Source of the DNA: an uncultured Gammaproteobacteria bacterium
Lineage (GTDB): Bacteria; Patescibacteriota; Patescibacteriia; UBA1558; S5-K13
Direction of reading: 5' to 3'
Assembly: GCA_964640635.1 (NCBI GenBank)
Contig: CAZXFD010000001.1
Span: 248,306-312,305 of the forward strand
Length of the DNA stretch: 64,000 nucleotides
Shown here: positions 21,761-38,189 of the stretch, in pieces
Position numbering within the stretch: position 1 is the first letter of the stretch
Layout of the letters: each line of letters starts with the position of its first letter
Made by a program: the position numbers and the translations under genes
Notes under the pieces: generated by a model
The model's input: only the letters and a program-made list of their open reading frames with translations
The model's database searches: none
What the model was told of the DNA's origin: nothing

Positions 21761-21778
21761 ATTGTTGGGAATTATGGT

Positions 21779-22749: not shown

Positions 22750-22922
22750 TTTGTATACCTCCTAATATTATTATTGTAATTTGATAATAACATAATGATT
22801 TAAATAGTCAATTATCTTATGTTTACTATTTAATCTTTATATAGTATAATGTTGCTATCATTTAAGGATCGTTTGTTTTTATTAAAATTTCTGTATAATA
22901 TATTTTAATAATTAAAAAATAT

Positions 22923-22996
22923 TCGGGGATCGTCTAATGGTAGGACAACAGGTTCTGGTCCTGTTTATTGGAGTTCGAATCTCTATCCCCGAGCCA
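22923..22996 (+). tRNA. tRNA-Gln (anticodon CUG)
   Basis: TCGGGGATCGTCTAATGGTAGGACAACAGGTTCTGGTCCTGTTTATTGGAGTTCGAATCTCTATCCCCGAGCCA has a U1-A72 acceptor pair typical of bacterial tRNA-Gln, a TTCGAAT T-loop, the anticodon loop TTCTGGT and an encoded CCA. Confidence 0.85.
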
Positions 22997-23031
22997 TAAA
23001 AGAAACATTGTGAAAATCAGTGTTTTTTTGT

Positions 23032-24147
23032 TTATTGAAATGCTAGAATTGGAATATTATTGATGTGCTCAAACCCGATTGTGACACTATTGTGACAATT
23101 ATTATCCATTTGCTTACTTAATACACTTATTGCATCTGTTGTTGCAAGTGGTCCTAAATGAGAATATCTCATTGTAGTTTTAACATCAGAGTGTCCTAAT
23201 AATTCTTTAACGATAAGTATTGAAACTCCACTTTGAACTAAATGAGAAGCAAAAGTGTGTCTTAAAGCGTGCCAACCTATTCTTCTTAATCCTGCTAATT
23301 TACAAGCATCATGAAGTCCTTCTAGAGCCACACTGGAGGTATAAGGCTTTTCACCAACGTTTGGAAAGACTAAACCAGTTTTTATTGATCTGCTGTTCAA
23401 TAAATAAAAGAGTTGTGAAGCTAGTGGAACATATCTTATCTTATTACTTTTCGTACTTCCAATTAAGCCCCTAGTAATAGATCTTCTAACAATAATTTTT
23501 CTATTGTTGAGATCAATATCGCTCCAATCAAGAATAGCAAGCTCTCCAAATCTCAATCCAGTCATAGAGTCCATTAAAATCATCTCTTTTATCATCCCAT
23601 TAGACGCGAATAAAAGTGATGACAATTCTTCGTTGCTCAGAAAATCAAATTTCTGTGGAGGAACTTTTAATAGTCTCATTTTAGGTACCTTATTTATACA
23701 CTCCCATTCTTGGGCTGTCTTAAGACATTTACTTAGAATCGTTAGAAGATTATTTATTGTTTTTGGGTTTAGTTTTTCCGATAGCTTTTTTGCTTTAAAT
23801 TCTTCTATCTGCAATACGGTTATTTTATCTAAGTGTAATTTTCCAAAAAATGGAATTAAATGTCTATTAAGAGCATATCTCTTACTAGCTTGTTCAGATT
23901 CTTTGTTGTTATTTACAACATAGGTTTTGTGCCATTTTAGCGCAAATTCAGAAAATATAGGTGCCTTGGTATATTTCTCTATTTTCTCGATTATATCTTC
24001 ACCACGGGCTAATTTAGAGCGAATAATACCCTCATAAACCTTGGCTCCGGTAAAACTATTTTCTGGACTAGGCATTCTATGTCTTTGTCTATTAAACATG
24101 AAATCTATCCAATATTTATTTCCTCTTTTACGTATACTCATATTCAT
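23032..24147 (-). CDS. int: Tyrosine-type site-specific integrase
   Basis: C-terminal catalytic motifs GWHALRHTFASHLVQSG ... LLGHSDVKTTMRYSHL (R..HxxR..Y); N-terminal SAM-like domain; adjacent to the tRNA. Confidence 0.9.
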   Translation of the reverse strand: MNMSIRKRGNKYWIDFMFNRQRHRMPSPENSFTGAKVYEGIIRSKLARGEDIIEKIEKYTKAPIFSEFALKWHKTYVVNNNKESEQASKRYALNRHLIPFFGKLHLDKITVLQIEEFKAKKLSEKLNPKTINNLLTILSKCLKTAQEWECINKVPKMRLLKVPPQKFDFLSNEELSSLLFASNGMIKEMILMDSMTGLRFGELAILDWSDIDLNNRKIIVRRSITRGLIGSTKSNKIRYVPLASQLFYLLNSRSIKTGLVFPNVGEKPYTSSVALEGLHDACKLAGLRRIGWHALRHTFASHLVQSGVSILIVKELLGHSDVKTTMRYSHLGPLATTDAISVLSKQMDNNCHNSVTIGFEHINNIPILAFQ

Positions 24148-24353
24148 CTTGAGATTATTTTGACTTGAACATTATTCAAATAAGCCTCAACATCTTCTCG
24201 TTTAAATCTTAAGCTTCCACCTATTTTATAAAACTGAATTACTCTTTGATTTATCAGTCTATAAATAGTTGGTTTAGAAATACTTAAAAATTTAGCAAGA
24301 TCATCTGGCGTTAAAAATGGTTTATTTATAATATTGTTCGCATCGTCAATCAT
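24144..24353 (-). CDS. xis: Excisionase / AlpA-like helix-turn-helix DNA-binding protein
   Basis: 69 aa; LSISKPTIYRLINQRVIQFYKIGGSLRFKREDVEAYL (HTH_17 excisionase pattern); overlaps the int start by 4 nt. Confidence 0.7.
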   Translation of the reverse strand: MIDDANNIINKPFLTPDDLAKFLSISKPTIYRLINQRVIQFYKIGGSLRFKREDVEAYLNNVQVKIISR

Positions 24354-24379
24354 ATAAGTTGTTAAAGAACAATATTGAT

Positions 24380-24401
24380 GAGATAAATATATATTTATCT
24401 C
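24380..24401. promoter_or_regulatory. Perfect 22-bp palindrome GAGATAAATATATATTTATCTC upstream of xis-int (candidate operator)
   Basis: Read directly from sequence, 27 nt upstream of the xis start codon. Confidence 0.45.
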
Positions 24402-24449
24402 TAAGCAATATTATCCTATCATTTTTTGTTATTCATTTAAAGATACTTC

Positions 24450-24914
24450 TTATTTAGCTTCTTTCATTATTCGATAAATTTCTGATTCTGGTAAAAAACG
24501 ACTAAATATTTTTTCTATTCTTTTATTTGACTCTTCTCTTTTTCTAGCTAATTCTTCTGGATCTTCTTGGATTTGAATTTGTTGAATATAACTATCATTA
24601 AACATTCCAATTGATTTTCCGATCCAAATATTAGCATTTAATCTTACGTTTTCATTCTTAGACGATTCGGCTAAATGTTTTAAGTTTTTTAAAACGTAAT
24701 CTGAATTTAGCTCTAGAACATCGAACCTTCGTTGCAAATATATCTTAACCTTAGTTATTCTTAGCAATTTACTAGCATTAACAGCCGCAACTTCATCGCT
24801 CAGTGTTTGTCCATATACTTTTTTATATGCTTTAGTAGCATTGCGATTACAATTTATGTATTCTTCTGCAAAAACTAATTGCTTATCTATTTCTTTTGTT
24901 TTTGTTGTGTTCAT
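24450..24914 (-). CDS. Phage terminase small subunit-like protein (Terminase_2 family)
   Basis: KQLVFAEEYINCNRNATKAYKKVYGQTLSDEVAAVNASKLLRITKVKIYL matches the TerS N-terminal HTH consensus (KQxxFxxEY...NAT.A........A...AS.LL...V). Confidence 0.55.
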   Translation of the reverse strand: MNTTKTKEIDKQLVFAEEYINCNRNATKAYKKVYGQTLSDEVAAVNASKLLRITKVKIYLQRRFDVLELNSDYVLKNLKHLAESSKNENVRLNANIWIGKSIGMFNDSYIQQIQIQEDPEELARKREESNKRIEKIFSRFLPESEIYRIMKEAK

Positions 24915-25117
24915 TATCTTATTATTTGTTAATTGCTTGTTAAAATATTTTTAACAAACTAATTATGGCTTAAAATAGATATTATTTGTTATTTGTGGGA
25001 TGAACTTATTGTTTTCTACCAATAAGGAAAGATAGCTTCCTTGATTGATTCCGAAGGAATCAAGGTAGCTAGCTTATTAACTTGTTAATATATATATGTA
25101 TATTAAAAGTTAACAAG

Positions 25118-26254
25118 CTAGTTTTTGGTTGCTGGAAAATAATAATTTGCTTGTCCCTGTTTACCTACATCTAAAATTTCAGCATCTACTAATTCTTTAA
25201 ATGCCGACCTTAAATTACTATCTTTAATATCTGTTTGATTTAGTACGTCTCTAATTGTTAATCCAGAGACCTCTTTTAGCATCTCTAAAATCTTTTCTTT
25301 GGCCTCGTCGACTTTTTTTGTCTTTTCTTGAGCTTCTCCTAGAAATTCCCATCTTATTTTTTTTTCTGTGTCTATAATTCTAATCACCACCTTTTGCTGT
25401 AATTTTTTTGACGACCTTGCTTTTTCTTGTGAAATTGTTATATCTAAAGCATTTTCACCTTCTTCAGTTATAGAATTTTTTGATTCCAGTGCTAAATGAG
25501 AAGATGTTTTACTTACAATTTCTGAACTACCCCTCATTGAATTTTGACTTATTTTCTCTCCTTGATATGGCTTACGGTTATGGTGTGTAAAAATCACAGA
25601 AATTTTGGTTTGTCTGATTAACTCTAATAATTGACTTGTAATTTTTTTCATTTCTGTTGAACTATTTTCCTCTTTATCATGAATTGTAGTAAGGGTATCT
25701 AATATTATTACCCCGTAATTATTTTTTTGTATTTTGAGTACTAAATTATTGAAATCTTCAGGATCGTCAATTTTAAAATTCTGATCTATCATATAGTCTA
25801 AACCCGCTATGTTGTCATTCGCTATTTTTTGTAGTCTTAATGCAATTTCATTCTTGTTCATTTCGCCATCCACATAAAGCACTTTTGTTTTCTCTACTTC
25901 ATATTCCCCAAAGACTTTTTTTCCTTGGATTATTTGATATGCCATAATTAATACTAATAAAGATTTTCCGGCTCCAGACTGTGCAGAAATCGCTGTAATG
26001 CTTTCTTTGGGAATCAGTGGATTAATAATGAAATATTCCGGTTGAACTTTATATTTCATTAATTCTTGAGCAGTTGTAATAACAAAATCATTAGACTCAT
26101 CAATAATCTTTGATTCATCTTGTTGTTCAAATTTTGGAAATTTCATATCTTCTAATCTTGAAGTTTGTATATCATCCCAATTAGGAGCCTCAATCAATTT
26201 AATTTCTCCATCCATAGAACCTTTTGTTTCATTATTAGTCTCATTTGTTGGCAT
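25118..26254 (-). CDS. RecA-fold replicative ATPase (AAA_25/RepA-like) with a C-terminal winged-helix domain
   Basis: Walker A SAQSGAGKS; YVDGE; Walker B VIILDTLTT; FTHHNRK; C-terminal wHTH. Confidence 0.6.
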   Translation of the reverse strand: MPTNETNNETKGSMDGEIKLIEAPNWDDIQTSRLEDMKFPKFEQQDESKIIDESNDFVITTAQELMKYKVQPEYFIINPLIPKESITAISAQSGAGKSLLVLIMAYQIIQGKKVFGEYEVEKTKVLYVDGEMNKNEIALRLQKIANDNIAGLDYMIDQNFKIDDPEDFNNLVLKIQKNNYGVIILDTLTTIHDKEENSSTEMKKITSQLLELIRQTKISVIFTHHNRKPYQGEKISQNSMRGSSEIVSKTSSHLALESKNSITEEGENALDITISQEKARSSKKLQQKVVIRIIDTEKKIRWEFLGEAQEKTKKVDEAKEKILEMLKEVSGLTIRDVLNQTDIKDSNLRSAFKELVDAEILDVGKQGQANYYFPATKN

Positions 26255-26262
26255 ATTATTAT

Positions 26263-26565
26263 TTAGTTAATCGTCTTTATCGCAGATTCTTGAATATTTT
26301 TTTCTGCTATAGAATAATCTGCATTCAATTGACCATGTTTATTTATTTTATATCCAAAATCTAAAGAAGCTTTTATAAATGACTCTCTTGAAATATATCC
26401 GCCAAGAATATTCCCCATACTTTTTTCAACACAATGTTTTAGGTTTTGAGCAGTATATTTTTTATTAATATTTTTTTTTATTTTTACAAACTTTTGAAGC
26501 CATTCTTTACATAATTGAACTTCTTTTTCATTTATATATTTAATATCTAAATTTTTTATTTTCAT
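26263..26565 (-). CDS. Hypothetical protein
   Basis: 100 aa ORF within the element. Confidence 0.35.
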   Translation of the reverse strand: MKIKNLDIKYINEKEVQLCKEWLQKFVKIKKNINKKYTAQNLKHCVEKSMGNILGGYISRESFIKASLDFGYKINKHGQLNADYSIAEKNIQESAIKTIN

Positions 26566-26658
26566 ATTATTATTTTAATTTATAAACTTATAATGAGACT
26601 CATTCATGGCCCATGATTTTTGGGTAATGTGTAAATTCTAAAATTGTTTTTATGTGGT

Positions 26659-26928
26659 TTAAGTTTCATAAATCCTTGATTTAATTTCTTTTATTAAACT
26701 AAAAAATACTAGTGGTTCAACTAATAACTCTTTTTTCCAGAATCTATTGAGAATTATTTCCAGGTTTTTATCTATTTTGAAATAGAATATAGTCCTTTTA
26801 GGATTTTCTTTATCCATTTTTTCTATTTTGTAATTGAAGTAAGACAATACGACTATTGTATTAAAGTCCGTTGTTGAAAATAATTTTTTATTATTCATTA
26901 TTATGCTCATATAATTTTTTCCTTTCAT
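26659..26928 (-). CDS. Hypothetical protein
   Basis: 89 aa ORF. Confidence 0.3.
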   Translation of the reverse strand: MKGKNYMSIIMNNKKLFSTTDFNTIVVLSYFNYKIEKMDKENPKRTIFYFKIDKNLEIILNRFWKKELLVEPLVFFSLIKEIKSRIYET

Positions 26929-27046
26929 ATTAAAATTATATGCCTATATAGAAAGACAAAAAATTTGTTTAGATTCTAAACAAATCAAAAAAACGCTTAA
27001 TTTTATTAGCGTTTTTTTATATTTCTTTTATGGGTTTCTTTAGATT

Positions 27047-27787
27047 CTAAACAGTATACTTATTTTCTAATTTTTTATATTCTTCTTCGTTTTTTAATGT
27101 TTCTATGTGGATAACTTTTGTAATAGTATTCGCTCTCTTTTCTAATATAGAGGTTGGAGTAAAAATTTTATCACAATAGAATTTTAATCTTTTATTATAA
27201 TTAATACTCATTAATGTTTTGATGTTGCAATCTTTCAAAATATCTATATTAACGTCTTTATTTCTTATTTCTGCTAAATTATATAAGCTATCCGCCCAAC
27301 CCTTTTTATCATTAGCACTCATATTTCTTGGAAATATTGACGCATTCTTTATCTCGCCAATCACAATATATTTATATCCTTTGGAACCATCTTTAAATAT
27401 ATACAATTTCTTGATTTTGTTTTTCTCCTTTTCATCCATAATTTCTCTACATAATTTATTGAATTCGTTGCTTATATTAATTACATATTGATATGGGTAT
27501 TTAAAATACATTCCTAAATATTTACTAGGCACTAATTCATCTTCTTCTGAATTTGGCCTTACGCTTTGTAAAAATCCTGAATTTTTTAACTCATCCAAAG
27601 CTATAGGAAATAATGAATTCACAAAGCCGCTATTTTTCAATTCCTCGTCTTTAATTATTAAGTCTATTTGGTCAAATTTCTCATTTAGTGGGTGGTATTC
27701 ATAAAATGGGTCTGATTTTAAAGTTTTCAATTTAATCTTTAATAATCCAATTATAAACTTTTTGCCATCTTCAATATTGGTATTCAT
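27047..27787 (-). CDS. Hypothetical protein (internal DELKNSGF repeat)
   Basis: 246 aa ORF. Confidence 0.4.
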   Translation of the reverse strand: MNTNIEDGKKFIIGLLKIKLKTLKSDPFYEYHPLNEKFDQIDLIIKDEELKNSGFVNSLFPIALDELKNSGFLQSVRPNSEEDELVPSKYLGMYFKYPYQYVINISNEFNKLCREIMDEKEKNKIKKLYIFKDGSKGYKYIVIGEIKNASIFPRNMSANDKKGWADSLYNLAEIRNKDVNIDILKDCNIKTLMSINYNKRLKFYCDKIFTPTSILEKRANTITKVIHIETLKNEEEYKKLENKYTV

Positions 27788-28255
27788 ATATTTTTCATTT
27801 TAATCTTAATATATTTCTATAATATCTCTATTGCATAGGCTTGTAAACAATATATTGATTACCTAGGTGTTTTAACATATAATAAAAGAGCCAAACGATA
27901 GAAGAAATTTATAGGGATTTTAATAAAATCACAGCTTTTTGTGACATTCTCATTTGTGACAAGGATCGGGCATACCGACCAAAACACAAATGGGAATTCC
28001 TATGGATACCTTTTGTCGTTTGGCAGGTCGGGTGTCCGTTTTTGTTTATATAAATAAATTAAATAACTATGGAAATAAGACAAATGATAATTGCATTCAC
28101 GTGGATAATGTTTTGGGGATACGTTATTGCAAATATTAGTCATGCACAAAAAGAATCCAAGGTGTTTTATTGGCTTCTTTTAATCTCTATAATGATATCA
28201 TTAACAATTATTAAAATTTAAAAGCCACATAAATATTATAGGGTAAATTAATAAT

Positions 28256-29098
28256 ATGAAAAAAATATTACATTTTGATGATGAGTCAGTGTTGGGTAAT
28301 ATGTTTAAGTTAAAATTTGAAAAAGCTGGATTTATTGTTCAGTATTATGAAAAACTTCCAAAAGATGAAGAAGAATTTATTAATTTAGTCCTATCAGAAA
28401 ATCCAAATATTATTTTGACTGATATTATTCACCAAGGATTAGATGGATTTGAAATGACAGAAATATTAAAAGGTGATGATAGAACAAAAAACATTCCAAT
28501 TATTGCTTTTACAAACATGAATCAGGAAGAAGACATAAAAAGAGGCATTGATTTAGGAATGAGTGATTATATTGTTAACACAACAAAAATAGAGGAAATT
28601 GTCAGTAGAATAAACAACATAATAAATAATAAGATTTCTAAGAAACAAAAAACTATGAAGCAGATTCTAGACAAAACAATGGAGCTTATTGAATCTTCGA
28701 AGAGGACTATGGCGGCAAGATTTTGCAGTGGAGATGGGAGAAATGAAACTTTTGGTATTGATTTTGGTCCGATCACTCCAGAAATTGACTCGAATATGGC
28801 GGCAGAAGCCTATGGCTCAATAGGCATATATTTTTCTAAGAACAAAACGGATCGCAGTTTATCTGAAGGTCAATTTTGTTTAATATTAATGATGGGCGAA
28901 GATATAATGGTTGGATCATTTATTATTGCAAAACTTGGTGGAGAAGAAATGATAAATGAAATGAGAAAAAGAATTATAGACTTAAGAATTAAGAATGTTG
29001 GTGATAGGATAGATGGATTAGAAGAAGCTGTTTTACTAAAAGAAACAAACGATTATTTTGACCACTGTTTAAATTTTGGAAATAATTTAGCTAAGTAA
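28256..29098 (+). CDS. Orphan response-regulator receiver (REC) domain protein with an uncharacterised C-terminal domain
   Basis: The acidic pocket DDE and ILTDIIHQGLDGFEM ... IIAFT ... GMSDYIVN follow the CheY-like REC pattern; the ~150-aa C-terminal domain is unknown. Confidence 0.55.
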   Translation: MKKILHFDDESVLGNMFKLKFEKAGFIVQYYEKLPKDEEEFINLVLSENPNIILTDIIHQGLDGFEMTEILKGDDRTKNIPIIAFTNMNQEEDIKRGIDLGMSDYIVNTTKIEEIVSRINNIINNKISKKQKTMKQILDKTMELIESSKRTMAARFCSGDGRNETFGIDFGPITPEIDSNMAAEAYGSIGIYFSKNKTDRSLSEGQFCLILMMGEDIMVGSFIIAKLGGEEMINEMRKRIIDLRIKNVGDRIDGLEEAVLLKETNDYFDHCLNFGNNLAK

Positions 29099-29122
29099 TT
29101 TAAATTATTTAGTCATATTAGA

Positions 29123-30157
29123 ATGTACAATTATCTTAAACCAAAAGAATACTACGAAGATCTATATGATAAATTTACCGTAAAAAGATGCCTTGATCAT
29201 GAAAGATTCTTTTTAAAACAACAGATAGATCCAAATGATAAGGATGCTAAAGAAAAAGAAAGGGTCTTAAATGCAGCACTTGGGGTGTCTCTATATTTCA
29301 TAAAAGGATATAGATATAAAGAAAAAGAATCCACTATTCAAGAATGGATGAATAGAGATAAGGAGATTGATAGAAGATTGGAGGAAGCTATACTATATAA
29401 CGTAAAATGTCCTTTTTGTCACAGTGCTAATATGAGTCTAGAGTCTAAAGACGTGCTTGAAGAGCGTGTTTTATTTTTATATAAATGCGATGATTGCAAG
29501 AAAATAAGTTCTTTCAATGAATATGGTGAAAGAAAAACATTTGAATCAAGGTGTCCTAAATGTAACGATATATTAGAGGGTAAAGCGAAAAGAGAAAAAG
29601 ACAAAATAACATCTTATTATAAATGTCCTAGCTGTAATTATAAAGAAAAACCAGAGGTATATTTATTTAAAAATAAAAAGGAAGAAGATAACAGTTGGAA
29701 AAAATACAGAGAAATATGTTGTTTTAGCGAAATTAAGGGTAGAGAATTTATTGACGGAGAAATAAGATTAAAGGGTATGAGAGATCTTGTTGATGAAATA
29801 AAGACAATGGATGCTAACAAGGGGCTTTACGAAAGACTAGATAAATTAGAAAAATTAAATATTGCCAAACTAAAAGAACTATTAAATAAGTCTTTAGTAA
29901 AAAACAAATATACACAATTAAAATTTTCAGAACCTGAGATTGGTAAAGATGTCATTGTCAGCTTCAAAGTTCAAGACAACGACGCAGTAAGAGAAGAATA
30001 TGAAAGTAAAGATGAATTAAAAAAGACAATCAACGAAACACTTAAAAATACTAATTGGAGATTAATGAGTGATGGTGTTAATTATAGACTAGGCTTTTTA
30101 AGTGGGAGATTAAGAGGATATGAAAATAAGGACGATTTATTAAAGTTAGTGAAGTAA
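29123..30157 (+). CDS. Hypothetical protein with two Cys4 zinc ribbons
   Basis: Cys pairs CPFC...CDDC and CPKC...CPSC. Confidence 0.45.
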   Translation: MYNYLKPKEYYEDLYDKFTVKRCLDHERFFLKQQIDPNDKDAKEKERVLNAALGVSLYFIKGYRYKEKESTIQEWMNRDKEIDRRLEEAILYNVKCPFCHSANMSLESKDVLEERVLFLYKCDDCKKISSFNEYGERKTFESRCPKCNDILEGKAKREKDKITSYYKCPSCNYKEKPEVYLFKNKKEEDNSWKKYREICCFSEIKGREFIDGEIRLKGMRDLVDEIKTMDANKGLYERLDKLEKLNIAKLKELLNKSLVKNKYTQLKFSEPEIGKDVIVSFKVQDNDAVREEYESKDELKKTINETLKNTNWRLMSDGVNYRLGFLSGRLRGYENKDDLLKLVK

Positions 30158-30165
30158 AATTTATG

Positions 30166-30975
30166 CTATACATTAATTTGTTTATTCTTTATAATCACGG
30201 CACCATTTTCTTGGATTAATTTATTTACAGATAAAATTCTTTCTTTAAATTCATTTGGTTGACTTTCAAAACATTCTTGATAATCCTTGCTCCACTTTTC
30301 GATTAGTAGCATTGAAGCATTTTTGCCTATTTCATATAAATCTTCTGGGGATATAAATTTCAACTTAAAATTTGTAAGTTTCTCTAATTTTCTGGATTTA
30401 TTTTTTAGCATAGAATCCGAAATCTGCAATCCACGATCAACTGATAAAAAATGGGTCAAAGAATTTCTTAAATAACGCAATTCTTCTACGGTTATATTAT
30501 TTGCTCTTTCCTTATTTATTTGTACCCATTTATTATTTTTGTTGAGACAAAAATTGCCATAAAAGGATTTCCAGACTTTTTTATCTAAAGTTAATTTTCT
30601 GATTTCCGCTCCATCACTAATTTTATTTTCATAGGCAAATTCTAATCTCATTAATGTCTCTAGGTAAGCAAATAAAAATATCGCCTCTGATCGAACCGAA
30701 TTAACACCCATTAATTTTTCTGCGGTAGTGGTTGGATTCTCAGAAAGTGTGAATCTAAATTCGATTGAATTTTCTTTAAGTTTTTGAAAAAGTGCTTGTA
30801 TAAGTTTTAAATTTTCAGCATACTGTAGACCTATTTCCCATAGTTTTTTATTAAATCCTAAAATATCCTCAATCTCTTTTTCTATCTCCTGTAGAAAATT
30901 AACTATGGGCATCAAATTGGGAGAAATAACAATTTTCTTTCCATCAAAAACAATATGTGTATTTTGGTATTGCAT
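30166..30975 (-). CDS. Hypothetical protein
   Basis: 269 aa ORF. Confidence 0.4.
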   Translation of the reverse strand: MQYQNTHIVFDGKKIVISPNLMPIVNFLQEIEKEIEDILGFNKKLWEIGLQYAENLKLIQALFQKLKENSIEFRFTLSENPTTTAEKLMGVNSVRSEAIFLFAYLETLMRLEFAYENKISDGAEIRKLTLDKKVWKSFYGNFCLNKNNKWVQINKERANNITVEELRYLRNSLTHFLSVDRGLQISDSMLKNKSRKLEKLTNFKLKFISPEDLYEIGKNASMLLIEKWSKDYQECFESQPNEFKERILSVNKLIQENGAVIIKNKQINV

Positions 30976-31010
30976 ATTAATATTAAATAATTCTATTCTT
31001 TATAAGAATA

Positions 31011-33689
31011 TTACCTATTACCAAACAAATCAATTAATTGTTTAAAACTCGTTGGTTTATATTTATCCCACTCTTCTTGTTTAACATAAAGCATTTTATA
31101 TGAAATCTTTTTCTGTCTTTCGCTGGCGTCATCACACCATTGTGCTAATCTCTTTATTTTTTCAATATCATCTAAATCTTCCCTTCCTTTTGTTTCTACA
31201 ATATAAATTGTTTTATTATCTGGTTTCACAAAAAAATCTGGATAATAACTAGAAATTGCTCCGCTAGCATTTTTGTAGTCAATTTTAAAATGAATTTCAT
31301 AATAGTTTTTTGCAAAAGAAATTACATCATCCGCGGTTTCTAAAAAGTCTGCGAATTCTAATTCAAAATCACTATCGCCAACAATTTTATTAAAAACGCT
31401 TTTCTTTGGCAACAAATATTTTTTATCAGTAACTACAAATGGTCTAGCACTGCTTACTTTAAGATAGTTTTTTATTTCTGTATCACCAACATCTTGTACC
31501 GTTAAGTTATTTATTTCTTTTTTAAATGTTTCTACAATTGTTTTAACTGCTTCTAGTTCTGACAAATTTCTTAAAATATTTAAATCATTTAAATCAATAT
31601 TTTCATTAAACAAATGATTAATAATAAATTCTTTCACTTTACCAAATAAAATATCATAACAACCAAAAAGACGAAGTTCCTTCATTATCCTTTGTACGAA
31701 GAAACCGACAACACTTTGATAATTAGGTTCAATAAAAGTTTCTAAAATTGTTGTGTGGTGTATTTTATCGTCAATGACTTCTTTAAATACTATCTCTTTT
31801 TTTTCTGCTTCTGAAAACTGTTTTATTTTAATTTTCTCATGTTTAAAATTTGACGCATCTAACAAATTAAGATTTTTATATTCTCTTTGTATTCTTGGCG
31901 TTAATACTGGTAATTCTATATCCAAATTTTCAATATCTTTTTTTACATTTTCTGTATCAACTTCAATAACAGTTGGTGTAATTGGAGAACCACTACGATC
32001 CATTTTTCTTTTTTCCAACTCAACGCCTTCTGCTTTTATAGATTCAACGAACTCCATAAACGCAGGAGTTCCAATAACACTCACATATTCTTCTACGTCT
32101 TGACCAAAAAACATTCTTCTAAGACCACGTCCTAAAGTTTGCTCTGGCAATATTTTTGAATCAGATCCATATGGACGCAAACCAACTATTGTAGTTACAT
32201 TTTTCACATCCCAACCTTCTTTCAACATAAGAACGGATACGATTACTTTATACGGACTTTCTGAACTATCTATGTTATTAGCTTGCTTTCTCAATTCTTC
32301 AAGTTCTTCTTTGCTTTTTCCAGAAACACTTTCGGAAATTTCACCGCTTTGATTTGTGTGAATTGTTAAGACACAACCCTTTAATTTAGGGTAATGTTTT
32401 TCTAAAAATTCAGCTACATCATCGCAATTTCTAGTATTATCTGCCATTATAAATAAAATTGATTTTTTACCGGTTGGTTTTAATTCTTTATATGTCTTTT
32501 CCCATTCTTCAACTCCTAGTCTTATAAAATCTTCGTATTTTTCTGCAAAAAGAGAACTTTGTTTTTCTTGAAGTTTGGCTCTACTTGCTTGATCTGGTAA
32601 AACTGGATTTTTTACAACGCCTTGATGTATTGCTTCAACCAATGGATAATCCGAAACTGTTTGAACAAAAATTTCACCCCTATTGTTTTTTGGCGTTGCG
32701 GTTACATCAATCTGTAATGCTAATTTTTTATCTTTTTGTAATAATTTATTGTGTATATCTTCAATAGATTTAAACCAAGCCATTTTTGGATCGTGTATAT
32801 GATGAGCTTCGTCGTTTATAACCATGAGTTCATCGACGTCTCTGACTATTTCCCCCAAGTCTACTTTTGAATCATTTGTTTTTCCAACTACTTTATTGCC
32901 AAGAAAATAATCTGATGTATCTTCATCTTCAAAGCTTGATTCATTTATACTACCCTCATACACTCTATGAATATTTGTAAGAAAAATATTTCCAGATTTT
33001 GAAATCGTGCCAACTTCATCTTGTAAATGAAGTTTAATTTGAAAATCATCTTGCCAATTTTGTCCGCAATAACCATTATCAGGCAAAATAGGATCTTCAT
33101 AAAATATTTTTAATCCCTCGAAGTCATTTTTTATTCTATCTAAAACAATGATATTTGGAGTTATTAATAAAAAGTTTTTTGAAAGTTCTGAGTTTTCTTC
33201 ATATAGTTTATGAAAATAAGACCATGCTAAAATCAAACTCATTACTTTTGTTTTTCCTGCACCTGTAGCCATTTTAACAACAAAACGAAGCCAATCCTCT
33301 GTAAACATATTAGGGCTTACTCTACCTAACTTATCGAATTTAATTAAATCATATTTGTTTTCAACTTTTTCTACATCATAAAGCCAAATAATTGTTTCCA
33401 CTGCTTCTCTTTGTGCAAAATAATACTGAAAGGAAATACTTGTTCCGTCTTTAATAAAAATAGTGTGCGGTTCTTTAAACCACCAATTTAATAAAGCTTT
33501 TGAAGTTTCACTTGCCCCACTATAATCATTCTTTCTCCATTCATCTATTCTTTCTCTTAATTCTGGAACGAATGGTGGTAAAAGTTTTTCATATCCTTTT
33601 TCACGTAAATCTTCATCTGCAGGAAACCATCTAATAGATGGCTCTAGTATTTGAAACTTATCTTTTGGAAAATCTTTATGTAATGCCAT
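31011..33689 (-). CDS. res: Type III restriction enzyme Res subunit (SF2 helicase + C-terminal PD-(D/E)XK nuclease)
   Basis: Walker A MATGAGKTKV; DEAH box VINDEAHH; helicase motif VI; C-terminal YIVETKGRE (ExK). Confidence 0.8.
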   Translation of the reverse strand: MALHKDFPKDKFQILEPSIRWFPADEDLREKGYEKLLPPFVPELRERIDEWRKNDYSGASETSKALLNWWFKEPHTIFIKDGTSISFQYYFAQREAVETIIWLYDVEKVENKYDLIKFDKLGRVSPNMFTEDWLRFVVKMATGAGKTKVMSLILAWSYFHKLYEENSELSKNFLLITPNIIVLDRIKNDFEGLKIFYEDPILPDNGYCGQNWQDDFQIKLHLQDEVGTISKSGNIFLTNIHRVYEGSINESSFEDEDTSDYFLGNKVVGKTNDSKVDLGEIVRDVDELMVINDEAHHIHDPKMAWFKSIEDIHNKLLQKDKKLALQIDVTATPKNNRGEIFVQTVSDYPLVEAIHQGVVKNPVLPDQASRAKLQEKQSSLFAEKYEDFIRLGVEEWEKTYKELKPTGKKSILFIMADNTRNCDDVAEFLEKHYPKLKGCVLTIHTNQSGEISESVSGKSKEELEELRKQANNIDSSESPYKVIVSVLMLKEGWDVKNVTTIVGLRPYGSDSKILPEQTLGRGLRRMFFGQDVEEYVSVIGTPAFMEFVESIKAEGVELEKRKMDRSGSPITPTVIEVDTENVKKDIENLDIELPVLTPRIQREYKNLNLLDASNFKHEKIKIKQFSEAEKKEIVFKEVIDDKIHHTTILETFIEPNYQSVVGFFVQRIMKELRLFGCYDILFGKVKEFIINHLFNENIDLNDLNILRNLSELEAVKTIVETFKKEINNLTVQDVGDTEIKNYLKVSSARPFVVTDKKYLLPKKSVFNKIVGDSDFELEFADFLETADDVISFAKNYYEIHFKIDYKNASGAISSYYPDFFVKPDNKTIYIVETKGREDLDDIEKIKRLAQWCDDASERQKKISYKMLYVKQEEWDKYKPTSFKQLIDLFGNR

Positions 33690-33693
33690 AAAA

Positions 33694-35421
33694 TTATTTT
33701 TTCAACCATTGAAATATATCATTAAAATTAGATTTAGTTTTTTTATTGAATTTATCAATACTATTTTTAGAAAACTTAATATCCTCTAAGAATAATCTTG
33801 CAAGTAATTCTTTTTTTCTATCTTTTGCAATTTCAGAATTTGCCTTATTATAGGAATGACGCTCTTTTAAAATATACTTATTAAAATCGGTTTTGTAAAA
33901 TAAGTCTTCTACGCCCTCAAAGCCATCTAATTTTTTGATAGTTCTGCTTAAATCGTCTTCGTTATATGGAAAAAAATATTTTACAATATCCCTATAAACA
34001 CTTTTGCCCTCCTTACCATCATCAAAGATAACTTTAAATTTTACTCCCCAACCAATTAAAATACTTATTAGTGGGCGTATATTTTTTACACCACAAGCAG
34101 GAATAAATAGATAATCTTCTTTTATGTCAAGCAACTTTTTAAACGCCTGGAGATAATATTGATCCGTTATTCCTTCCACTACAATACAAGTTTTACTTGT
34201 ATCAATGATCTGGCCAAAATAACTGATACCCATTGCTGTGATTATTGGAGATAGAGCATCCTTACTTGCACCCTCTTTTGATGATGCAAATTGAGCAATG
34301 TTATTTATTTTAGTCCCACCATCCTTCATTTGAAAAATGAGTCTAATTCTTAATAATTCATCATCATTAACTCCAATAAGTGATGGATTGTGTGTGGTAT
34401 ATAAAATTTGCATCCCTTTTTTAGCAAGCTCCTCTAATACAACCTTTACATTTTTTTGAGCAGTCTCATGTAAGCCCTGCCCCGGCTCATCTATTAAAAG
34501 AATATAGTTATTGAAATTTTTATTTTCAACTCCAAGAGCTTTTAATCTAAGCATAAAAGCATTAAACCATTGAAACCCCTTGCTTTTTTGTTCCATAAAC
34601 AGAGGTATTCCATCTTCTCTATGAATAAGAAACTCTACTCTTGACTCTTCATTGTTTGGAATAAGATTAATATCAAAACGATATTTATCTTCAATGCCGT
34701 CAATTCTCTTTTGAGTCCAGTAAGTATTGAGATCTAGTTCTGCCATTTTTTCAATTGAATTTTTAATTGTACTTCTCTCTTGGGGAGTTTTATTCATCAC
34801 TTCTTTAAAATTCACATCAAAAATTTGTTGAAAATCTTGGACTGCTTGGTTAGATTCTATATTTGCTATATTTATTTCACCCGGCAGTAAATTAGAAAAC
34901 GAATCGTACATTATAAATTCTGGCAATAAATTTATAACATGAGACACCACAGTATCTAAAAATTCTTCTTTAGCTTTCAAAATTGCTTTTTCATGTTCTT
35001 CTCCCTCACTATCTATTCCTTGAGATAAATCAATTTTTGAAATTATCTCTTCCATTTTCAAAACACTTTCATCAGAAATATAAATATCCCCAGACTCTTC
35101 ATCTGAAGTTCCGCTTCTATAACAAGTGACTACTTTAAGTTCTTTTATAGTTTTATTTATTCTATCATCTTCTGAATTATAATCTTTATTTTCAAAACAA
35201 AAGATACACGTAATCTTAGGTTCCGAGTTAATTCTTTTAGAGAGCTTAATAAATTTTTCATCTGGGCCATTTTTAAAATAATTTAAAGCCTCTAGTATTG
35301 CACTCTTACCAGCTTCATTTTGTCCAGCAAGAACGGTTATATTATCTTTTTCTGAGAGATGACATACACCAGAGTTGATAATGGATTTTACATGCTCAAT
35401 TTGAAAGGATTGTAGTCTCAT
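33694..35421 (-). CDS. OLD-family ATP-dependent nuclease (ABC-type ATPase + C-terminal Toprim)
   Basis: Walker A GQNEAGKS; Q-loop/signature SKGFQW; Walker B ILLIDEPGQGLH; H-loop YTTHN; Toprim-like CIVVEGITDQYY and VIFDDGKEGK. Confidence 0.7.
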   Translation of the reverse strand: MRLQSFQIEHVKSIINSGVCHLSEKDNITVLAGQNEAGKSAILEALNYFKNGPDEKFIKLSKRINSEPKITCIFCFENKDYNSEDDRINKTIKELKVVTCYRSGTSDEESGDIYISDESVLKMEEIISKIDLSQGIDSEGEEHEKAILKAKEEFLDTVVSHVINLLPEFIMYDSFSNLLPGEINIANIESNQAVQDFQQIFDVNFKEVMNKTPQERSTIKNSIEKMAELDLNTYWTQKRIDGIEDKYRFDINLIPNNEESRVEFLIHREDGIPLFMEQKSKGFQWFNAFMLRLKALGVENKNFNNYILLIDEPGQGLHETAQKNVKVVLEELAKKGMQILYTTHNPSLIGVNDDELLRIRLIFQMKDGGTKINNIAQFASSKEGASKDALSPIITAMGISYFGQIIDTSKTCIVVEGITDQYYLQAFKKLLDIKEDYLFIPACGVKNIRPLISILIGWGVKFKVIFDDGKEGKSVYRDIVKYFFPYNEDDLSRTIKKLDGFEGVEDLFYKTDFNKYILKERHSYNKANSEIAKDRKKELLARLFLEDIKFSKNSIDKFNKKTKSNFNDIFQWLKK

Positions 35422-37532
35422 ATGTTTATTTCTATTACTTTAGTCGTATCATTACCAAAAATATCAATAACTTTTATTGCTATTTTTGTTTTGCCTTTTG
35501 GCATTTCTTTTGGAGCTGAAACAAGTTCTAAATTTCGATCTTTTTTAGTTCTAAAAGATTGCCATTCATTTTCAAAAATATAATTTCCCGTCCATTGTTC
35601 TTTTTCTTCTTGAGTTTTTTCATCAATTATTCGAATAATTTCTTTTTTGCTTTCAAAATTAAAATCAATAGACCAATAATCAATCCAATCAGTCCATTTT
35701 TTTGTTAAAATTTCTCTTTCGATAATATCTGTATTTTTATCTTTAGATATTTTTATAACTTGACCATTTTCGATAAGAATTTTACTTCCGCCAGCTTTCA
35801 ATGCTTCTTCTACTTCTCCGGTATTGTCTTGATTATAAAAAACACTAAAATCTGTTAATTCAATTGAGACATCCTTAACATTACCACGACCTTTTATAAT
35901 TGGCTTAACTTCAATATAGGCTATATCATAAAACTTTACCTGTCCTTTCTCTACGGCTTTTTTATCAAAAACTTCTCTTGGTATTACTTTGAATTGAATA
36001 TCTAATCCTTGTTTTTTAGTTTCTTCAAAATCTAATCCCATTTCATAATCAAATCCAAGAACATCCGCTTTTGTAATTCCTTTTTCTTTACATTCTTTAA
36101 TTATCTCATCTAAAAAATTGCTTGTAATAGGTGTATCTATTTGTCCTACAGCTACGAGTCTATCTCTTTTTTTACCAACAAAAAAATTGAACGAGTCTAC
36201 TAGTTCGGCTTTATAAGCAGATAAGATAAGTCTTATAAATTCTTTTTCTTTATTTTCTTTTTGAATTCTTTTTTCTTCTTCTCTTAAATTTTCATTTATA
36301 GTTAAAAATTTTTCTCTTTCATATTTTCCAATATTTAAAATTTCAAATGCTCTGAAATTTTTACCTTGTTTTTTTAATTCTCTTTGAACACCAATCATTC
36401 TTTTACGGGTAGTGTGAATAGAAAATTTACCCAAATCTGAACCAATCCATTTCCTACCTAACTTTTCTGCAACCGCCAATGTAGTTCCGGAACCAACAAA
36501 AAAATCAGCTATAAGATCTCCTTCGTTAGAGGATGCTTTAATAATTCTTTCCATTAATGCTTGTGGTTTTTGGGTAGGATATCCTATGTGTTCTGGTAGA
36601 GCGTGAAACACTTGGACAACATTATTTTCTTTTCTATCCAACCACGTCCAAACATCATCTGCCTTTCTACCCTCATCAGCATAATATCTAGTCGCGTTGT
36701 TATTTCCAGACATTCTATATTTTCTACCATCTTTATCAATTAGAGGGTAAATTTTTTCGTCTTTGACCAATAGTCTAATTGCATTATAGATATTTTGATT
36801 TTTAGTTTTAGTGTAAACTAAAATATTATCGTGTTTTTTTGCAAAACCCTTTAGTGGTGCTGTCCCGGCTTGATAATGCCAGATTAATTCATTGAGAAAA
36901 TTATCTTTTCCAAAAATTTCGTCTAATATCAGTCTAATAAAACTATTTACCCTCCAGTCACAGTGAACATAGATTGTTCCATCAGAAGCAAGTAAGTCGT
37001 ACATTAATTTTAATCTCTCATAAATCATGGCCACAAAACTATCCATGCCCCTTCCCCACGTATCTCTAAATGCAATCTCTTCAATCACTGATGGTTTTTT
37101 AGTAAAAGATTCTTCACCAATTTCAATATCCATAGAAAAATCTGCTCCAACATCAAATGGTGGATCAATATAAATAAGTTTTAATCCATCTTCAGCTTCA
37201 ATTTGTTTTCTGAGTGGACCATTTTTTAATGATGATAAAATTAATTTATTATCTCCCCAAATAAGTTTATTTGTCCATCCTTGAATTTGTCTTCCAGATG
37301 TATCAAAAATAGAACTTTGTAAATTCATAGTTTCCTCACTTCTTGGCTCATCAATATTTTCTATTGTTTGAAATGGTAATACGATATTTTCTACCTCATC
37401 AGTTTTGCCATTCCATAAAAGCTCAACTTCTCTATTATCATCAAACAGTAAAAATCTATACTTTTCCGGTAGTGGTTTTCCAACTTCTAGATATTTTATA
37501 ATATCTCGTTTTTCGTTATCTGTTAGTTGCAT
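35418..37532 (-). CDS. mod: Type III-like N6-adenine/N4-cytosine DNA methyltransferase (beta-class Mod)
   Basis: Motif IV IYIDPPF precedes motif I FFVGSGTT (beta order); 704 aa; the stop/start overlaps the next gene by 4 nt. Confidence 0.8.
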   Translation of the reverse strand: MQLTDNEKRDIIKYLEVGKPLPEKYRFLLFDDNREVELLWNGKTDEVENIVLPFQTIENIDEPRSEETMNLQSSIFDTSGRQIQGWTNKLIWGDNKLILSSLKNGPLRKQIEAEDGLKLIYIDPPFDVGADFSMDIEIGEESFTKKPSVIEEIAFRDTWGRGMDSFVAMIYERLKLMYDLLASDGTIYVHCDWRVNSFIRLILDEIFGKDNFLNELIWHYQAGTAPLKGFAKKHDNILVYTKTKNQNIYNAIRLLVKDEKIYPLIDKDGRKYRMSGNNNATRYYADEGRKADDVWTWLDRKENNVVQVFHALPEHIGYPTQKPQALMERIIKASSNEGDLIADFFVGSGTTLAVAEKLGRKWIGSDLGKFSIHTTRKRMIGVQRELKKQGKNFRAFEILNIGKYEREKFLTINENLREEEKRIQKENKEKEFIRLILSAYKAELVDSFNFFVGKKRDRLVAVGQIDTPITSNFLDEIIKECKEKGITKADVLGFDYEMGLDFEETKKQGLDIQFKVIPREVFDKKAVEKGQVKFYDIAYIEVKPIIKGRGNVKDVSIELTDFSVFYNQDNTGEVEEALKAGGSKILIENGQVIKISKDKNTDIIEREILTKKWTDWIDYWSIDFNFESKKEIIRIIDEKTQEEKEQWTGNYIFENEWQSFRTKKDRNLELVSAPKEMPKGKTKIAIKVIDIFGNDTTKVIEINI

Positions 37533-37883
37533 ATTGATTAATGTTTAGATATATTAATATGTTTAATAATCTCACATTTTAAGGCAAAAATCAATTTAAA
37601 AAACATCCCTGAAAATTAAGGATGTGTTTTTCTTATATCTCTAGAGATGCCATATGTAACTCAAAAAACTTTTTCAAAAGTCAGGGGTCAATTTAATCGA
37701 CGGGGGGTGGTCAACTCTATCAATATTGTTAGTGTCACATTGTGACACTATTGTGCCTAAGAGTTGACCCTCCATCTTAAAACTGATAATATTTAATCAC
37801 AATTGATAAGTTATATTTCTAGCATTTAAGAGGCTTTTATAAACTTTACACAGTATTAATCAATCATTATTAAAATAGCTTAC

Positions 37884-37932
37884 ACAGGTTCTGGTCCTGT
37901 TAATCTAGGTTCGATTCCTAGTCCCCGAGCCA
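37884..37932 (+). repeat. attR: partial diverged copy of the tRNA-Gln 3' half (anticodon stem through CCA)
   Basis: ACAGGTTCTGGTCCTGTTAATCTAGGTTCGATTCCTAGTCCCCGAGCCA; the T-stem carries compensatory changes relative to the intact tRNA. Confidence 0.8.
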
Positions 37933-38189
37933 CTATATTTAAAACTAGCTCCGTGCTATAATTGAATTTAGTTTTTAATCTTAAATAATCAATATTATGT
38001 ACAAAAAGAAAAAGGTAGCAAAAAGAAAGCATAGAAAAAATGCTGGTAAGGAAATTACAAATCTTAGAAATAGATAATTAAAAATATTTTTAAATATAAA
38101 TGACTGGGGTTGTTTCTGGTCATTTTTTATTTACGTGAATACAAAAAAGTTGTATAATAATATTGTTTTAATAATTAAAATAAAAACAA

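Follow-up and report, generated by a model that had tools for sequence, protein, structure and literature searches.

A tRNA-integrated island of Patescibacteria, probably a phage satellite, with a conserved core and a variable anti-phage cargo

Introduction

We analysed a 64-kb stretch of DNA (64,000 nucleotides of contig CAZXFD010000001.1; the whole stretch is hereafter referred to as the window) and found in it an island of 14.9 kb that occupies a tRNA-Gln gene. The island encodes a tyrosine integrase (Int), an AlpA/Xis-type protein, a small terminase subunit (TerS) and a RepA-type replicative helicase, together with accessory genes and a defence operon. We conclude that it is a site-specific integrative element and, most likely, a phage satellite of the same kind as the phage-inducible chromosomal islands (PICIs), an assignment that we hold with moderate confidence. 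The existence and the mobility of the element are close to certain, and its integration and its membership in a family of related islands are solid; its dependence on a helper phage is an inference of moderate confidence.

Patescibacteria, also known as the candidate phyla radiation (CPR), form a very large bacterial branch, for the most part uncultured, whose genomes are tiny and whose lifestyle is epibiotic; their mobile elements are poorly charted. A first-pass annotation of the window, made from the letters and a list of open reading frames (ORFs), had called satellites of this type essentially undescribed in such hosts; in agreement with that statement, no paper linking satellites or PICIs with Patescibacteria or CPR appeared in the literature that we searched, which is not proof of absence. 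The conserved, tRNA-adjacent core of RepA-type helicase, TerS, AlpA and Int predicts that the phages of CPR are themselves parasitised. The finding is not conceptually surprising; it brings satellite biology to a large and neglected phylum.

Results

The island is bracketed by an intact tRNA-Gln gene and a displaced tRNA fragment

ARAGORN called two tRNA genes in the window. One of them, at positions 22923-22996 of the + strand, is an intact tRNA-Gln gene with the anticodon CTG (CUG in the RNA), which also matched the Rfam tRNA model with 56.5 bits. The part of this gene at 22948-22996 is repeated directly at 37884-37932, with 80% identity over 49 nt and a spacing of 14,936 nt, which makes it the region's longest direct repeat. 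The two copies are identical in their first 18 nt (ACAGGTTCTGGTCCTGTT) and in their last 11 nt (TCCCCGAGCCA). Thus, the intact tRNA gene, the 18-nt core and the terminal repeat in a partial tRNA copy 14.9 kb away, all of which had been noticed at first pass, were recovered by the programs. The 18-mer constitutes the complete anticodon stem-loop, with the stem ACAGG/CCTGT and a 7-nt loop that has CTG in its middle. The 20 nt between the two exact parts correspond to the T-arm; they are divergent but keep the stem, which is CTAGG/CCTAG in the displaced copy and TGGAG/CTCTA in the intact gene.

These features delimit an element of 14.9 kb bracketed by a regenerated tRNA-Gln gene and a displaced tRNA 3' half, an assignment that we regard as solid. 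Ends of this form are to be expected if a tyrosine integrase makes its crossover in the anticodon loop and the element carries a tRNA 3' part of its own. On the attL side, the target gene is the regenerated tRNA-Gln(CUG) gene (22923-22996, +), of which the bases 3' of 22965 would have been supplied by the island. The anticodon stem-loop at 22948-22965 (+), identical to 37884-37901, is the attL core and the probable crossover region. At the other end, attR comprises the displaced 3' half (37884-37932, +), which is probably the original host sequence. The last assignment fits the tRNA-Gln gene of a sister strain that lacks the island (L180; see below): counted from the sequences, its 3' half matches the displaced half at 44 of 49 positions, as against 41 of 49 for the intact gene.

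An exact 16-mer, TTGTGACACTATTGTG, is found ~115-150 bp inside each end of the element. On the left, at a distance of ~115-130 bp from the core, the 3'-terminal part of int contains two TTGTGACA repeats (23079-23097, +), which are candidate arm-type binding sites for Int (or Xis). On the right, the 16-mer is preceded by an inverted TGTCACA (37733-37755, +), ~130-150 bp from the attR core. All five copies of the octamer TTGTGACA in the window are inside the element, where 1.9 copies would be expected for the whole window. Recombination between the two cores is predicted to yield the attP junction …ATTATTAAAATAGCTTAC/ACAGGTTCTGGTCCTGTT/TATTGGAGTTCGAATC… (its island-start side is also written TATTGGAGTTCGAATCTC) and the attB junction …GGTAGGACA/ACAGGTTCTGGTCCTGTT/AATCTAGGTTCGATTCCTAG….

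Core genes for Int, AlpA/Xis, TerS and a RepA-type helicase

Thirteen ORFs fill the interval. All 13 products were searched against Pfam, and the ten that do not belong to the restriction-modification (R-M) operon were also searched against PHROGs. Right beside the tRNA gene lies int (23032-24147, -), encoding a tyrosine integrase of 371 residues (Pfam Phage_integrase, 1.2e-30, with a SAM-like N-terminal domain; phrog_1, 2.4e-61), the translation of which shows the catalytic R...HxxR...Y signature (GLRFGEL, HALRH, RYSHL). The adjacent gene (24144-24353, -) encodes an AlpA/Xis-type helix-turn-helix (HTH) protein of 69 residues (Pfam HTH_17, 7.8e-17; phrog_66, 'excisionase and transcriptional regulator', 3.7e-9). 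Its stop codon overlaps the int start by 4 nt, as expected from the overlapping integrase and AlpA/Xis pair of the first-pass annotation.

The next gene (24450-24914, -) encodes a protein of 154 residues that had been called terS-like and whose recognition by TerS models had been set as a test of the satellite proposal. It matched Pfam Terminase_2 with 36.6 bits (cut-off, 26.1) and phrog_51 with an E-value of 1e-12. A profile of its nine closest homologues had the SF6 TerS (3zqp) as its best match in the Protein Data Bank (PDB; E = 0.01). An AlphaFold2 (AF2) model made on that alignment had a pLDDT of 75.5, and the top three Foldseek matches of this model in the PDB were all small terminases, with TM values of 0.80-0.81 for the DNA-binding domain. 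A phmmer search of the PDB with the single TerS sequence gave no match; the family profile and the fold search alone gave matches. In viral contigs of IMG/VR, the relatives of this protein are encoded directly upstream of the genes for the large terminase subunit (TerL) and the portal protein.

The replication gene (25118-26254, -) encodes a RepA-type (DnaB-like) helicase of 378 residues with a C-terminal winged helix (Pfam AAA_25, 4.4e-28; weak matches to winged-helix-turn-helix (wHTH) families). The AAA_25 family profile matches RepA of RSF1010 (PDB 1g8y) at 1.2e-13, which bears out the earlier description of this gene product as a RepA-like ATPase. Its homologues at 36-40% identity are fusions of PrimPol, AAA_25 and PriCT_1, and the island protein therefore corresponds to the helicase portion of such a primase-helicase, ending in a weak winged helix.

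No island protein matched capsid, portal, tail, holin, head-tail connector or lysis families in the Pfam and PHROG searches or in PADLOC, and the absence of capsid, portal and tail genes that had been noted from the letters was thereby upheld. The ORF list also agrees with the gene order given at that stage, int - xis - terS - RepA-like - hypotheticals - REC (receiver) - Zn-ribbon - Type III/OLD.

A family of related islands at several tRNA genes

Loci surrounding the helicase homologues were retrieved from genomic and metagenomic sequences for comparison with the window island (W). The AAA_25 protein had 41 homologues, and the named ones were mostly from metagenome-assembled genomes of Patescibacteria or Falkowbacteria. 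The order helicase-TerS-AlpA-Int was found in 12 loci (W, L037, L008, L111, L112, L114, L115, L117, L119, L120, L121 and L126; L115 and L117 are partial, and L037 is the same as L007, L038 and L113), across which the identity of the helicase to that of the window ranged from 36 to 58%. As judged from these loci, the conserved helicase/TerS/AlpA/Int core defines a Patescibacteria-wide family that is previously undescribed.

Every locus that was sequenced beyond int has a tRNA gene next to it, on the opposite strand and within ~60 bp, with the exception of L035, where ARAGORN made no call. The targeted genes are tRNA-Gln-CTG (W, L034, L111 and L112), tRNA-Glu-CTC (L037, L114 and L119), tRNA-Ala-TGC (L120 and L121) and tRNA-Gly-TCC (L126). 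Displaced tRNA fragments set the sizes of the islands at 8.7 kb (L120), 11.2 kb (L126), 11.2 kb (L035) and 14.9 kb (W). At one end of L035, an 18-mer is identical to the anticodon stem-loop of tRNA-Glu, and a copy with one mismatch lies 11.2 kb away. The same island has an exact 22-mer (a doubled 10-mer, TTTAGTCATC twice) at the 3' end of int and again near the far end, in parallel to the TTGTGACA repeats of the window. The closest relative of the window island, L034 (81% identity in Int, 81% in AlpA and 58% in the helicase), has its own doubled motif, TGGCCACAAT twice, at the corresponding position at the end of int. The TerS-Int block is absent from the more distant loci L124, L125 and L130. 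A scan of the IMG/VR viral contigs gave no helicase relative above 36% identity; these islands are therefore not being collected as viruses. The second tRNA gene of the window, tRNA-Glu(CTC) (13954-14028, -), is of the type targeted by L037, L114 and L119; it is unoccupied in the window genome.

Outside the core, each of the longer loci examined has a cargo of its own, and six islands carry six different defence systems: Type III R-M with OLD in W, MmeI/Eco57I-type R-M with T5orf172 proteins in L034, Mrr in L035, Type I R-M in L037, a DUF3800 protein corresponding to the PADLOC candidate system PDC-M04 (2e-61) in L120, and a MORC-like GHKL ATPase, a Schlafen/AlbA_2 protein and a SocA/Panacea toxin-antitoxin pair in L126. 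The variable slot is like the anti-phage hotspots that are carried by P4-like satellites and P2-like phages (PMC9122126). A fixed core beside a cargo slot with high turnover could serve as an anchor for mining new anti-phage genes in a phylum in which CRISPR and other defence systems are believed to be scarce.

Comparison with known satellites and islands

We compared the island with PICIs by gene content, gene order and size, according to the criteria of SatelliteFinder (PMC10085698). The PICI core in that scheme has five components in the canonical order int - regulator - pri/rep - (capsid) - terS; more than 99.9% of the detected PICIs are in Proteobacteria or Firmicutes, and the capsid-morphogenesis gene is found mostly in proteobacterial PICIs (PMC10085698). 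Among these components, the window island has the integrase (Phage_integrase and phrog_1), the regulator (an alpA, merR or stl homologue in the scheme, here an AlpA homologue judged by HTH_17 and phrog_66) and the small terminase (Terminase_2, phrog_51 and the SF6 TerS profile and fold matches). As a candidate for the primase-replicase component, the island has the RepA/AAA_25 helicase with its wHTH, in which no primase domain was found, and it is free of tail, holin, portal and head-tail connector genes, as PICIs are. Its size is within the range. If the helicase is counted as the replication gene next to int, alpA and terS, the island has four of the five core components, a set that in this scheme would make it a 'Type B' PICI (PMC10085698).

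What the island shares with PICIs of the SaPI and EcCICFT073 types is an integrase, an AlpA-type regulator, a candidate replicon of its own, TerS without TerL, the lack of structural and lysis genes, a size of ~9-15 kb and an accessory region with anti-phage systems. It differs from them in the phylum of its host, in having terS between alpA and the replication gene rather than at the far end, in its RepA/DnaB-like helicase without a primase domain, in lacking a capsid-morphogenesis gene and in having a large structured RNA. The PICI-like organisation proposed at first pass holds for int, alpA, terS, the RepA-like helicase and the cargo, and does not extend to the gene order, a primase domain or a capsid-remodelling gene.

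P4 itself integrates in a tRNA gene, and it uses the cos sites of its helper, not a TerS. We rejected an assignment of the island to the P4-like satellites: none of its proteins matched the core genes psu, delta, sid, epsilon and the alpha primase in Pfam or PHROGs. The shared traits are the integrase, the AlpA-like protein and the anti-phage hotspot (PMC9122126). The minimalist satellites of Vibrionaceae known as PICMI, compared here by their outline description (PMC10803314), share with the island a reduced gene content and the lack of capsid-remodelling genes; they differ in host and in integration site, which is a tRNA gene in the window. An integrative conjugative or mobilisable element was also rejected, on the ground that no relaxase, oriT-associated or type IV secretion system (T4SS) gene was detected by Pfam and PHROGs inside the element, and none was detected in the related islands either. 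The anatomy of the ends is exactly that of the tDNA-integrated islands as outlined for Islander (PMC4383910): a tyrosine integrase splits a tDNA, the island restores the gene, and the ends can be recognised by the regenerated gene on one side and the displaced fragment on the other. That class is generic and, as outlined there, silent on replication, packaging and cargo (PMC4383910).

The host and a sister strain without the island

The island is flanked by ordinary chromosomal genes, including those for DnaX, a SPOUT methyltransferase, a Band-7 protein, UvrB and UvrA, and translation with genetic code 11 gives long ORFs. For UvrB, the best relatives with a name come from a 'Patescibacteria group bacterium' (88%) and from Candidatus Falkowbacteria (76-77%). 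By these markers the host is a Patescibacteria bacterium, a possibility that the first reading of the letters had raised.

Contigs with exactly the same four flanking proteins were obtained from one strain, in three runs of one study, and all of those reaching the tRNA gene carry the island. One Logan contig (L001, SRR10083294) ends at its position 12849, which corresponds to 22968 of the window, 3 nt past the 18-nt core and inside the tRNA gene; this end could reflect a mixture of occupied and empty sites or a mere assembly break, and is suggestive only.

A sister strain (L180, GCA_964636855.1) has 93.7% nucleotide identity to the window across a 7.7-kb stretch that ends with dnaX. Past dnaX, its order is tRNA-Gln, a 26-aa ORF, a 188-aa gene and the DUF378 gene, with no island, and in the window the same 26-aa ORF and DUF378 gene lie immediately beyond the displaced tRNA fragment. 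Because DnaX, tRNA-Gln and DUF378 are adjacent in L180, the island and the adjoining genes for proteins of 169 and 102 residues are missing there. Comparison of L180 9836-10221 with window 21733-23035 and 37884-38076 also revealed, in L180, a duplicated 12-nt piece of the tRNA 5' end (CGATCCCCGAAT) 60 bp from the tRNA. L180 therefore shows a polymorphism for the absence of the island but does not offer a clean empty site, and the tRNA-Gln locus is a rearrangement hotspot.

Evaluation of the satellite reading and its alternatives

A number of observations weigh against the identification of the island as a PICI-like satellite. The Pfam and PHROG scans found no primase domain in the AAA_25 helicase, the PHROG primase/helicase families covering the helicase part alone, and RepA-type helicases are typical of plasmids. 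No capsid-morphogenesis or size-redirection gene was found with Pfam and PHROGs, although the orphan genes could hide one. The order int-alpA-terS-rep, which is family-wide, differs from the canonical PICI order. The TerS slot is occupied in L034 by an unrelated orphan of 222 residues, and L035 is also without TerS, with an unrelated orphan instead. Neither an attP nor a clean attB junction was seen; each exact-strain contig that reaches the tRNA gene is occupied. As regards the empty tRNA-Gln site for which the first-pass annotation had advised looking, the sister strain does lack the island, but its site is rearranged, with the tRNA inverted relative to dnaX. The compositional contrast with the flanks that had been suggested as another check did not materialise: chromosomal segments of equal length have tetranucleotide distances of 0.078-0.13, a span that includes the 0.118 of the island, and GC content gave no contrast. 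With no signal, composition neither supports nor refutes mobility. Lastly, the recommended search for a helper phage with a matching terminase was unsuccessful. No helper was identified in the TerS scans of IMG/VR, which returned distant relatives only, the closest phage TerS proteins having 31-46% identity over the N-terminal DNA-binding domain.

One viral contig deserves mention in this connection. L190 (IMG/VR UViG_3300014208_000897; 4.6 kb) encodes a TerS followed by TerL (2175-4479) and comes from metagenome 3300014208, from which island L038 was also recovered. Its TerS has 33-44% identity, in the N-terminal domain, to the TerS proteins of the islands, and 33% to that of L038. We regard it as a weak lead to a helper phage, not a match.

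The main rival explanation is a phage-independent integrative element, plasmid-like or mobilisable, that would spread by natural transformation or through a host type IV secretion system and in which the TerS-like protein would have been co-opted as a DNA-binding regulator or a partition-like factor. Such an element would account for a helicase of the RSF1010 RepA plasmid type, for the lack of TerS in the closest relative L034 and in L035, and for the failure to identify a helper; moreover, a chromosomal gene for a type IV coupling protein (TrwB/VirD4-like, DUF8128; 16749-19256, +), the sole T4SS-type gene found, is located 4 kb upstream of the island. It is at odds with the lack of detectable relaxase, oriT-associated and T4SS genes in the window island and its relatives, and with the retention of TerS, always in the same slot, across 12 loci despite the divergence of their helicases to 36-58% identity. 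Similar Terminase_2 proteins in viral contigs are bona fide TerS encoded beside TerL, and the sizes of 8.7-15 kb and the defence hotspot suit satellites. Taken together, we consider this explanation unlikely, though it is one to be taken seriously.

The phage-type integrase, Xis and TerS beside a tRNA gene, without any structural gene, could also be the remains of a decayed prophage, stripped of its structural genes and persisting as an immobile defence island. However, the 13 genes are all intact, with int and alpA/xis overlapping by 4 nt, and the same compact core recurs at four tRNA genes in many genomes, with intact direct repeats and paired arm-type sites, a pattern that independent decay would not yield. 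The lack of any helicase relative above 36% identity in viral contigs argues in the same direction, and we find a prophage remnant improbable. That there is no mobile element at all, only a tandem tRNA pseudogene around ordinary chromosome, is the case that the first-pass annotation had named as fatal to its proposal, and the match of the interval to its flanks in k-mer composition and GC content would agree with it. Against this, the integrase and Xis genes abut the tRNA, an exact 16-mer is present at both ends, and the interval is absent from sister strain L180. In the related islands, int likewise lies by a tRNA, here other tRNAs, and a displaced tRNA fragment is found at a distance of 8.7-11.2 kb, which argues that the repeat is neither a chance match nor a tandem pseudogene, and we give this explanation hardly any weight.

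A proposed life cycle

If the island is a satellite of the PICI kind, its cycle might proceed as follows. Int would recombine the tRNA gene with an attP core that imitates the anticodon stem-loop, the crossover occurring in the anticodon loop, and would be guided by the doubled arm-type TTGTGACA repeats ~115-150 bp inside each end; the tRNA 3' portion brought by the island would keep the tRNA gene functional. In the integrated state, the Mod-OLD-Res operon described below would shield the cell, and hence the island, from other phages. Infection by a helper, or its induction, is the presumed signal upon which AlpA/Xis and Int would excise the island, AlpA acting as both excisionase and activator. 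The RepA-type helicase would load, via its winged-helix tail, at the iteron-bearing TTAACAAG spacer described below, and the circle would be replicated, with primers supplied by the host, by the helper or through an orphan gene. The TerS of the island would then pair with the large terminase of the helper, by which island DNA would enter helper capsids. The switch between these states could reside in the divergent control region, which has a structured leader RNA and the gene for the receiver-domain protein.

Accessory genes and the defence operon

Between the helicase gene and the control region lie genes for a protein of 100 residues without an assigned function (26263-26565, -; 56% identity to a protein of L034), a DUF5659 protein of 89 residues (26659-26928, -; Pfam DUF5659, 1.1e-8) and an orphan of 246 residues (27047-27787, -), which is the first gene of the int-ward operon. 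According to jackhmmer, the DUF5659 gene is kept upstream of the helicase gene in L034, L126, L123, L124 and L125. The 246-residue orphan had no match in Pfam, PHROGs or PADLOC, and its single-sequence AF2 model (pLDDT 36) was unusable. The related islands have an orphan of 213-299 residues in its position with little or no sequence similarity to it, and the positional counterparts in five other islands were likewise without family matches.

On the other side of the control region, a hydrophobic ORF of 50 residues (28069-28221, +), read by translation of the sequence between the leader RNA and the REC gene, has no counterpart in L034; it could be a spurious ORF or could encode a small membrane peptide. 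The REC gene (28256-29098, +) encodes a receiver-domain protein of 280 residues (Pfam Response_reg, 2e-13) with an uncharacterised C-terminal half, and its homologue in L034 (6494-8026), in the same position, has 510 residues and 60% identity. It is followed by a gene for a protein of 344 residues with repeated CxxC zinc-ribbon motifs (29123-30157, +), which had sub-threshold Zn-ribbon matches in Pfam and none in PHROGs or PADLOC, and by a gene for an orphan of 269 residues (30166-30975, -) without Pfam, PHROG or PADLOC matches.

The far end of the island is occupied by the defence operon, for which the profile matches confirmed the Type III/OLD module of the first-pass annotation. It encodes a Type III methyltransferase (Mod; 35418-37532, -; Pfam N6_N4_Mtase, 1.9e-44; PADLOC MTase_III, 2e-111), an OLD-family ATPase-TOPRIM nuclease (33694-35421, -; Pfam AAA_15, 5.2e-14, and OLD-like_TOPRIM, 3.2e-6; PADLOC Old, 2.2e-24) and a Type III restriction subunit (Res; 31011-33689, -) composed of an SF2 helicase and a C-terminal PD-(D/E)xK-type endonuclease (Pfam ResIII, 4.3e-17, and RE_endonuc, 3.7e-5; PADLOC REase_III, 1.6e-20). 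Mod and Res, which fit the Type III profiles, are encoded in one operon, as in Type III R-M systems; the difference from these is the OLD gene inserted between them, which shares 4 nt with mod and stops 4 nt short of res. With the stand-alone OLD proteins of the P2 Old type, the product shares the ATPase and TOPRIM architecture, and its best plasmid homologue is a stand-alone gene with no R-M neighbours. No precedent for the Mod-OLD-Res arrangement was found among plasmids, nor was a description of it found in the literature that we searched. Gabija was considered and rejected: the GajA profiles of PADLOC scored more weakly than its Old profile, and there is no GajB-like gene, that is, no UvrD-like partner.

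A structured leader RNA in the divergent control region

The region 27788-28255 lies between the int-ward operon and the REC gene, which are transcribed away from each other. Back-to-back promoter-like sites are present at 27819-27883 as consensus matches only, TTTACA-17-TATTAT at 27819-27847 (-) and TTGATT-17-TATAAT at 27855-27883 (+). Right after the + strand site begins a segment (27890-28046, +) that is predicted to form a strongly structured leader RNA with a long interrupted hairpin: its minimum free energy is -62.7 kcal/mol (z = -7.67), and none of 200 shuffled sequences was equally stable. The RNA is favoured to be read towards REC, because the opposite strand folds less stably (-47.9). 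The apical loop, CGGGCAUACCGACC (27967-27980), is complementary to the 3' tail, GGUCGGGUGUCCG (28026-28038), which is followed by a run of U. Two more copies of TTGTGACA (27939-27946 and 27954-27961, +) are located in this leader RNA/promoter region; a protein that binds to the att arms, Int or AlpA/Xis, may also act here.

Homologues of this RNA, which we call type 1, occur in the same place and orientation in L034 (8038-8200, -) and L126 (6672-6812, -). Their closing stems have the same architecture and different sequences (GCCAAACGA/UCGUUUGGC in W, GCAUAACCACA/UGUGGUUAUGC in L034 and GCUUAACCACAA/UUGUGGUUAAGC in L126). In other islands, the same position of the control region is taken by LOOT RNAs (RF03000), found by Rfam in L037 (7682-7787, +; 55.6 bits), L120 (6215-6338, +; 50.5 bits) and L035 (8455-8574, -; 45.6 bits); the cut-off of 46.4 bits is passed by the first two. 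A search of 27850-28080, which includes the window RNA, gave no match at E <= 10 to the LOOT model or to any other Rfam family. LOOT RNAs have three hairpins, whereas the window RNA is one long branched hairpin; what the two share is the loop-tail complementarity and a similar tail, GUCGGGxGACC, before a U-run.

In RNAs of both types, the apical loop of the main hairpin can pair with the 13 nt that precede the terminal U-run, and the complementarity includes covariation and G-U pairs: the loop/tail pairs are CGGGCAUACCGACC/GGUCGGGUGUCCG in W, GGGGCGUUUCGACC/GGUCGAGCGUCCC in L126, GGUCUUCUGAC/GUCGGGAGACC in L035 and GGUCUUCUGAC/GUCGGGGGACC in L037. In a duplex test, the apical loop was the best partner of the tail in five of five RNAs, with energies of -17 to -20 kcal/mol as compared with -11 to -12 ± 2 for shuffled sequences, of which 0-6 out of 300 reached the observed value. 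When the three type-1 RNAs were aligned with MAFFT, the outer stems were mis-registered and RNAalifold recovered the inner helix alone; the structural argument is therefore based on the individual folds and the duplex test.

Hairpin and tail are a single nucleotide apart, and formation of the loop-tail helix would therefore preclude the long hairpin and vice versa, as judged by geometric reasoning rather than computation. Mutual exclusion would make the RNA either a switch between two folds or a structure that presents its loop for pairing in trans, and we put this forward as a hypothesis. In satellite P4, as summarised in PMC4825925, the CI RNA pairs with complementary sites of its own leader and causes premature transcription termination. 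The loop-tail complementarity of the window RNA recalls this design, and the likeness is structural only; no further copy of the loop or of the tail, of the kind that would serve as multiple targets in the P4 style, was found elsewhere in the 64-kb window.

A bolder proposal, which we consider doubtful, is that the islands constitute a widespread, Patescibacteria-specific satellite family, with the window island as its founding example, in which the switch between integration and induction is RNA-based, with LOOT-type loop-tail pairing setting termination in cis or in trans, like the P4 CI RNA. If it were true, the orphan LOOT motif would gain a function, and phage, satellite, epibiotic bacterium and the host of that bacterium would form a nested parasitism. 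The context of LOOT, the control region of tRNA-integrated, TerS-bearing islands of Patescibacteria, makes the function of this RNA testable.

A candidate replication origin

In SaPIs, the origin is located in a stretch with iterons that directly follows the replication gene. A motif search of the 203-bp spacer between the helicase stop codon and the terS start (24915-25117) revealed inverted pairs of TTAACAAG/CTTGTTAA that flank AT-rich DNA at both ends of the spacer, and a GC-richer hairpin; three of the five copies of TTAACAAG in the window are within this spacer. The length of the spacer is conserved at 184-203 bp, and the motif is also present in L037, L120, L111 and L034, while L126, which has the most divergent helicase, has another repeat in its spacer. 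These features point to the spacer as a candidate replication origin, with a pac site as the alternative.

Other loci in the window

A second small locus with defence-like genes lies outside the island at 46072-47748. It consists of a DUF3800 gene (46072-46698), a DUF3800-IX RNA (RF02968; 46725-46793, -; 52.9 bits) and a gene for a methyl-dependent restriction enzyme of the DpnI family (46954-47748).

Three consecutive orphan ORFs, of 527, 344 and 142 residues and without Pfam matches, are located at 57610-60627 (+). This segment is the sole compositionally deviant part of the window, with a GC content of 0.37-0.40 as compared with ~0.28 and a tetranucleotide distance of up to 0.22-0.30, and it may be recently acquired DNA.

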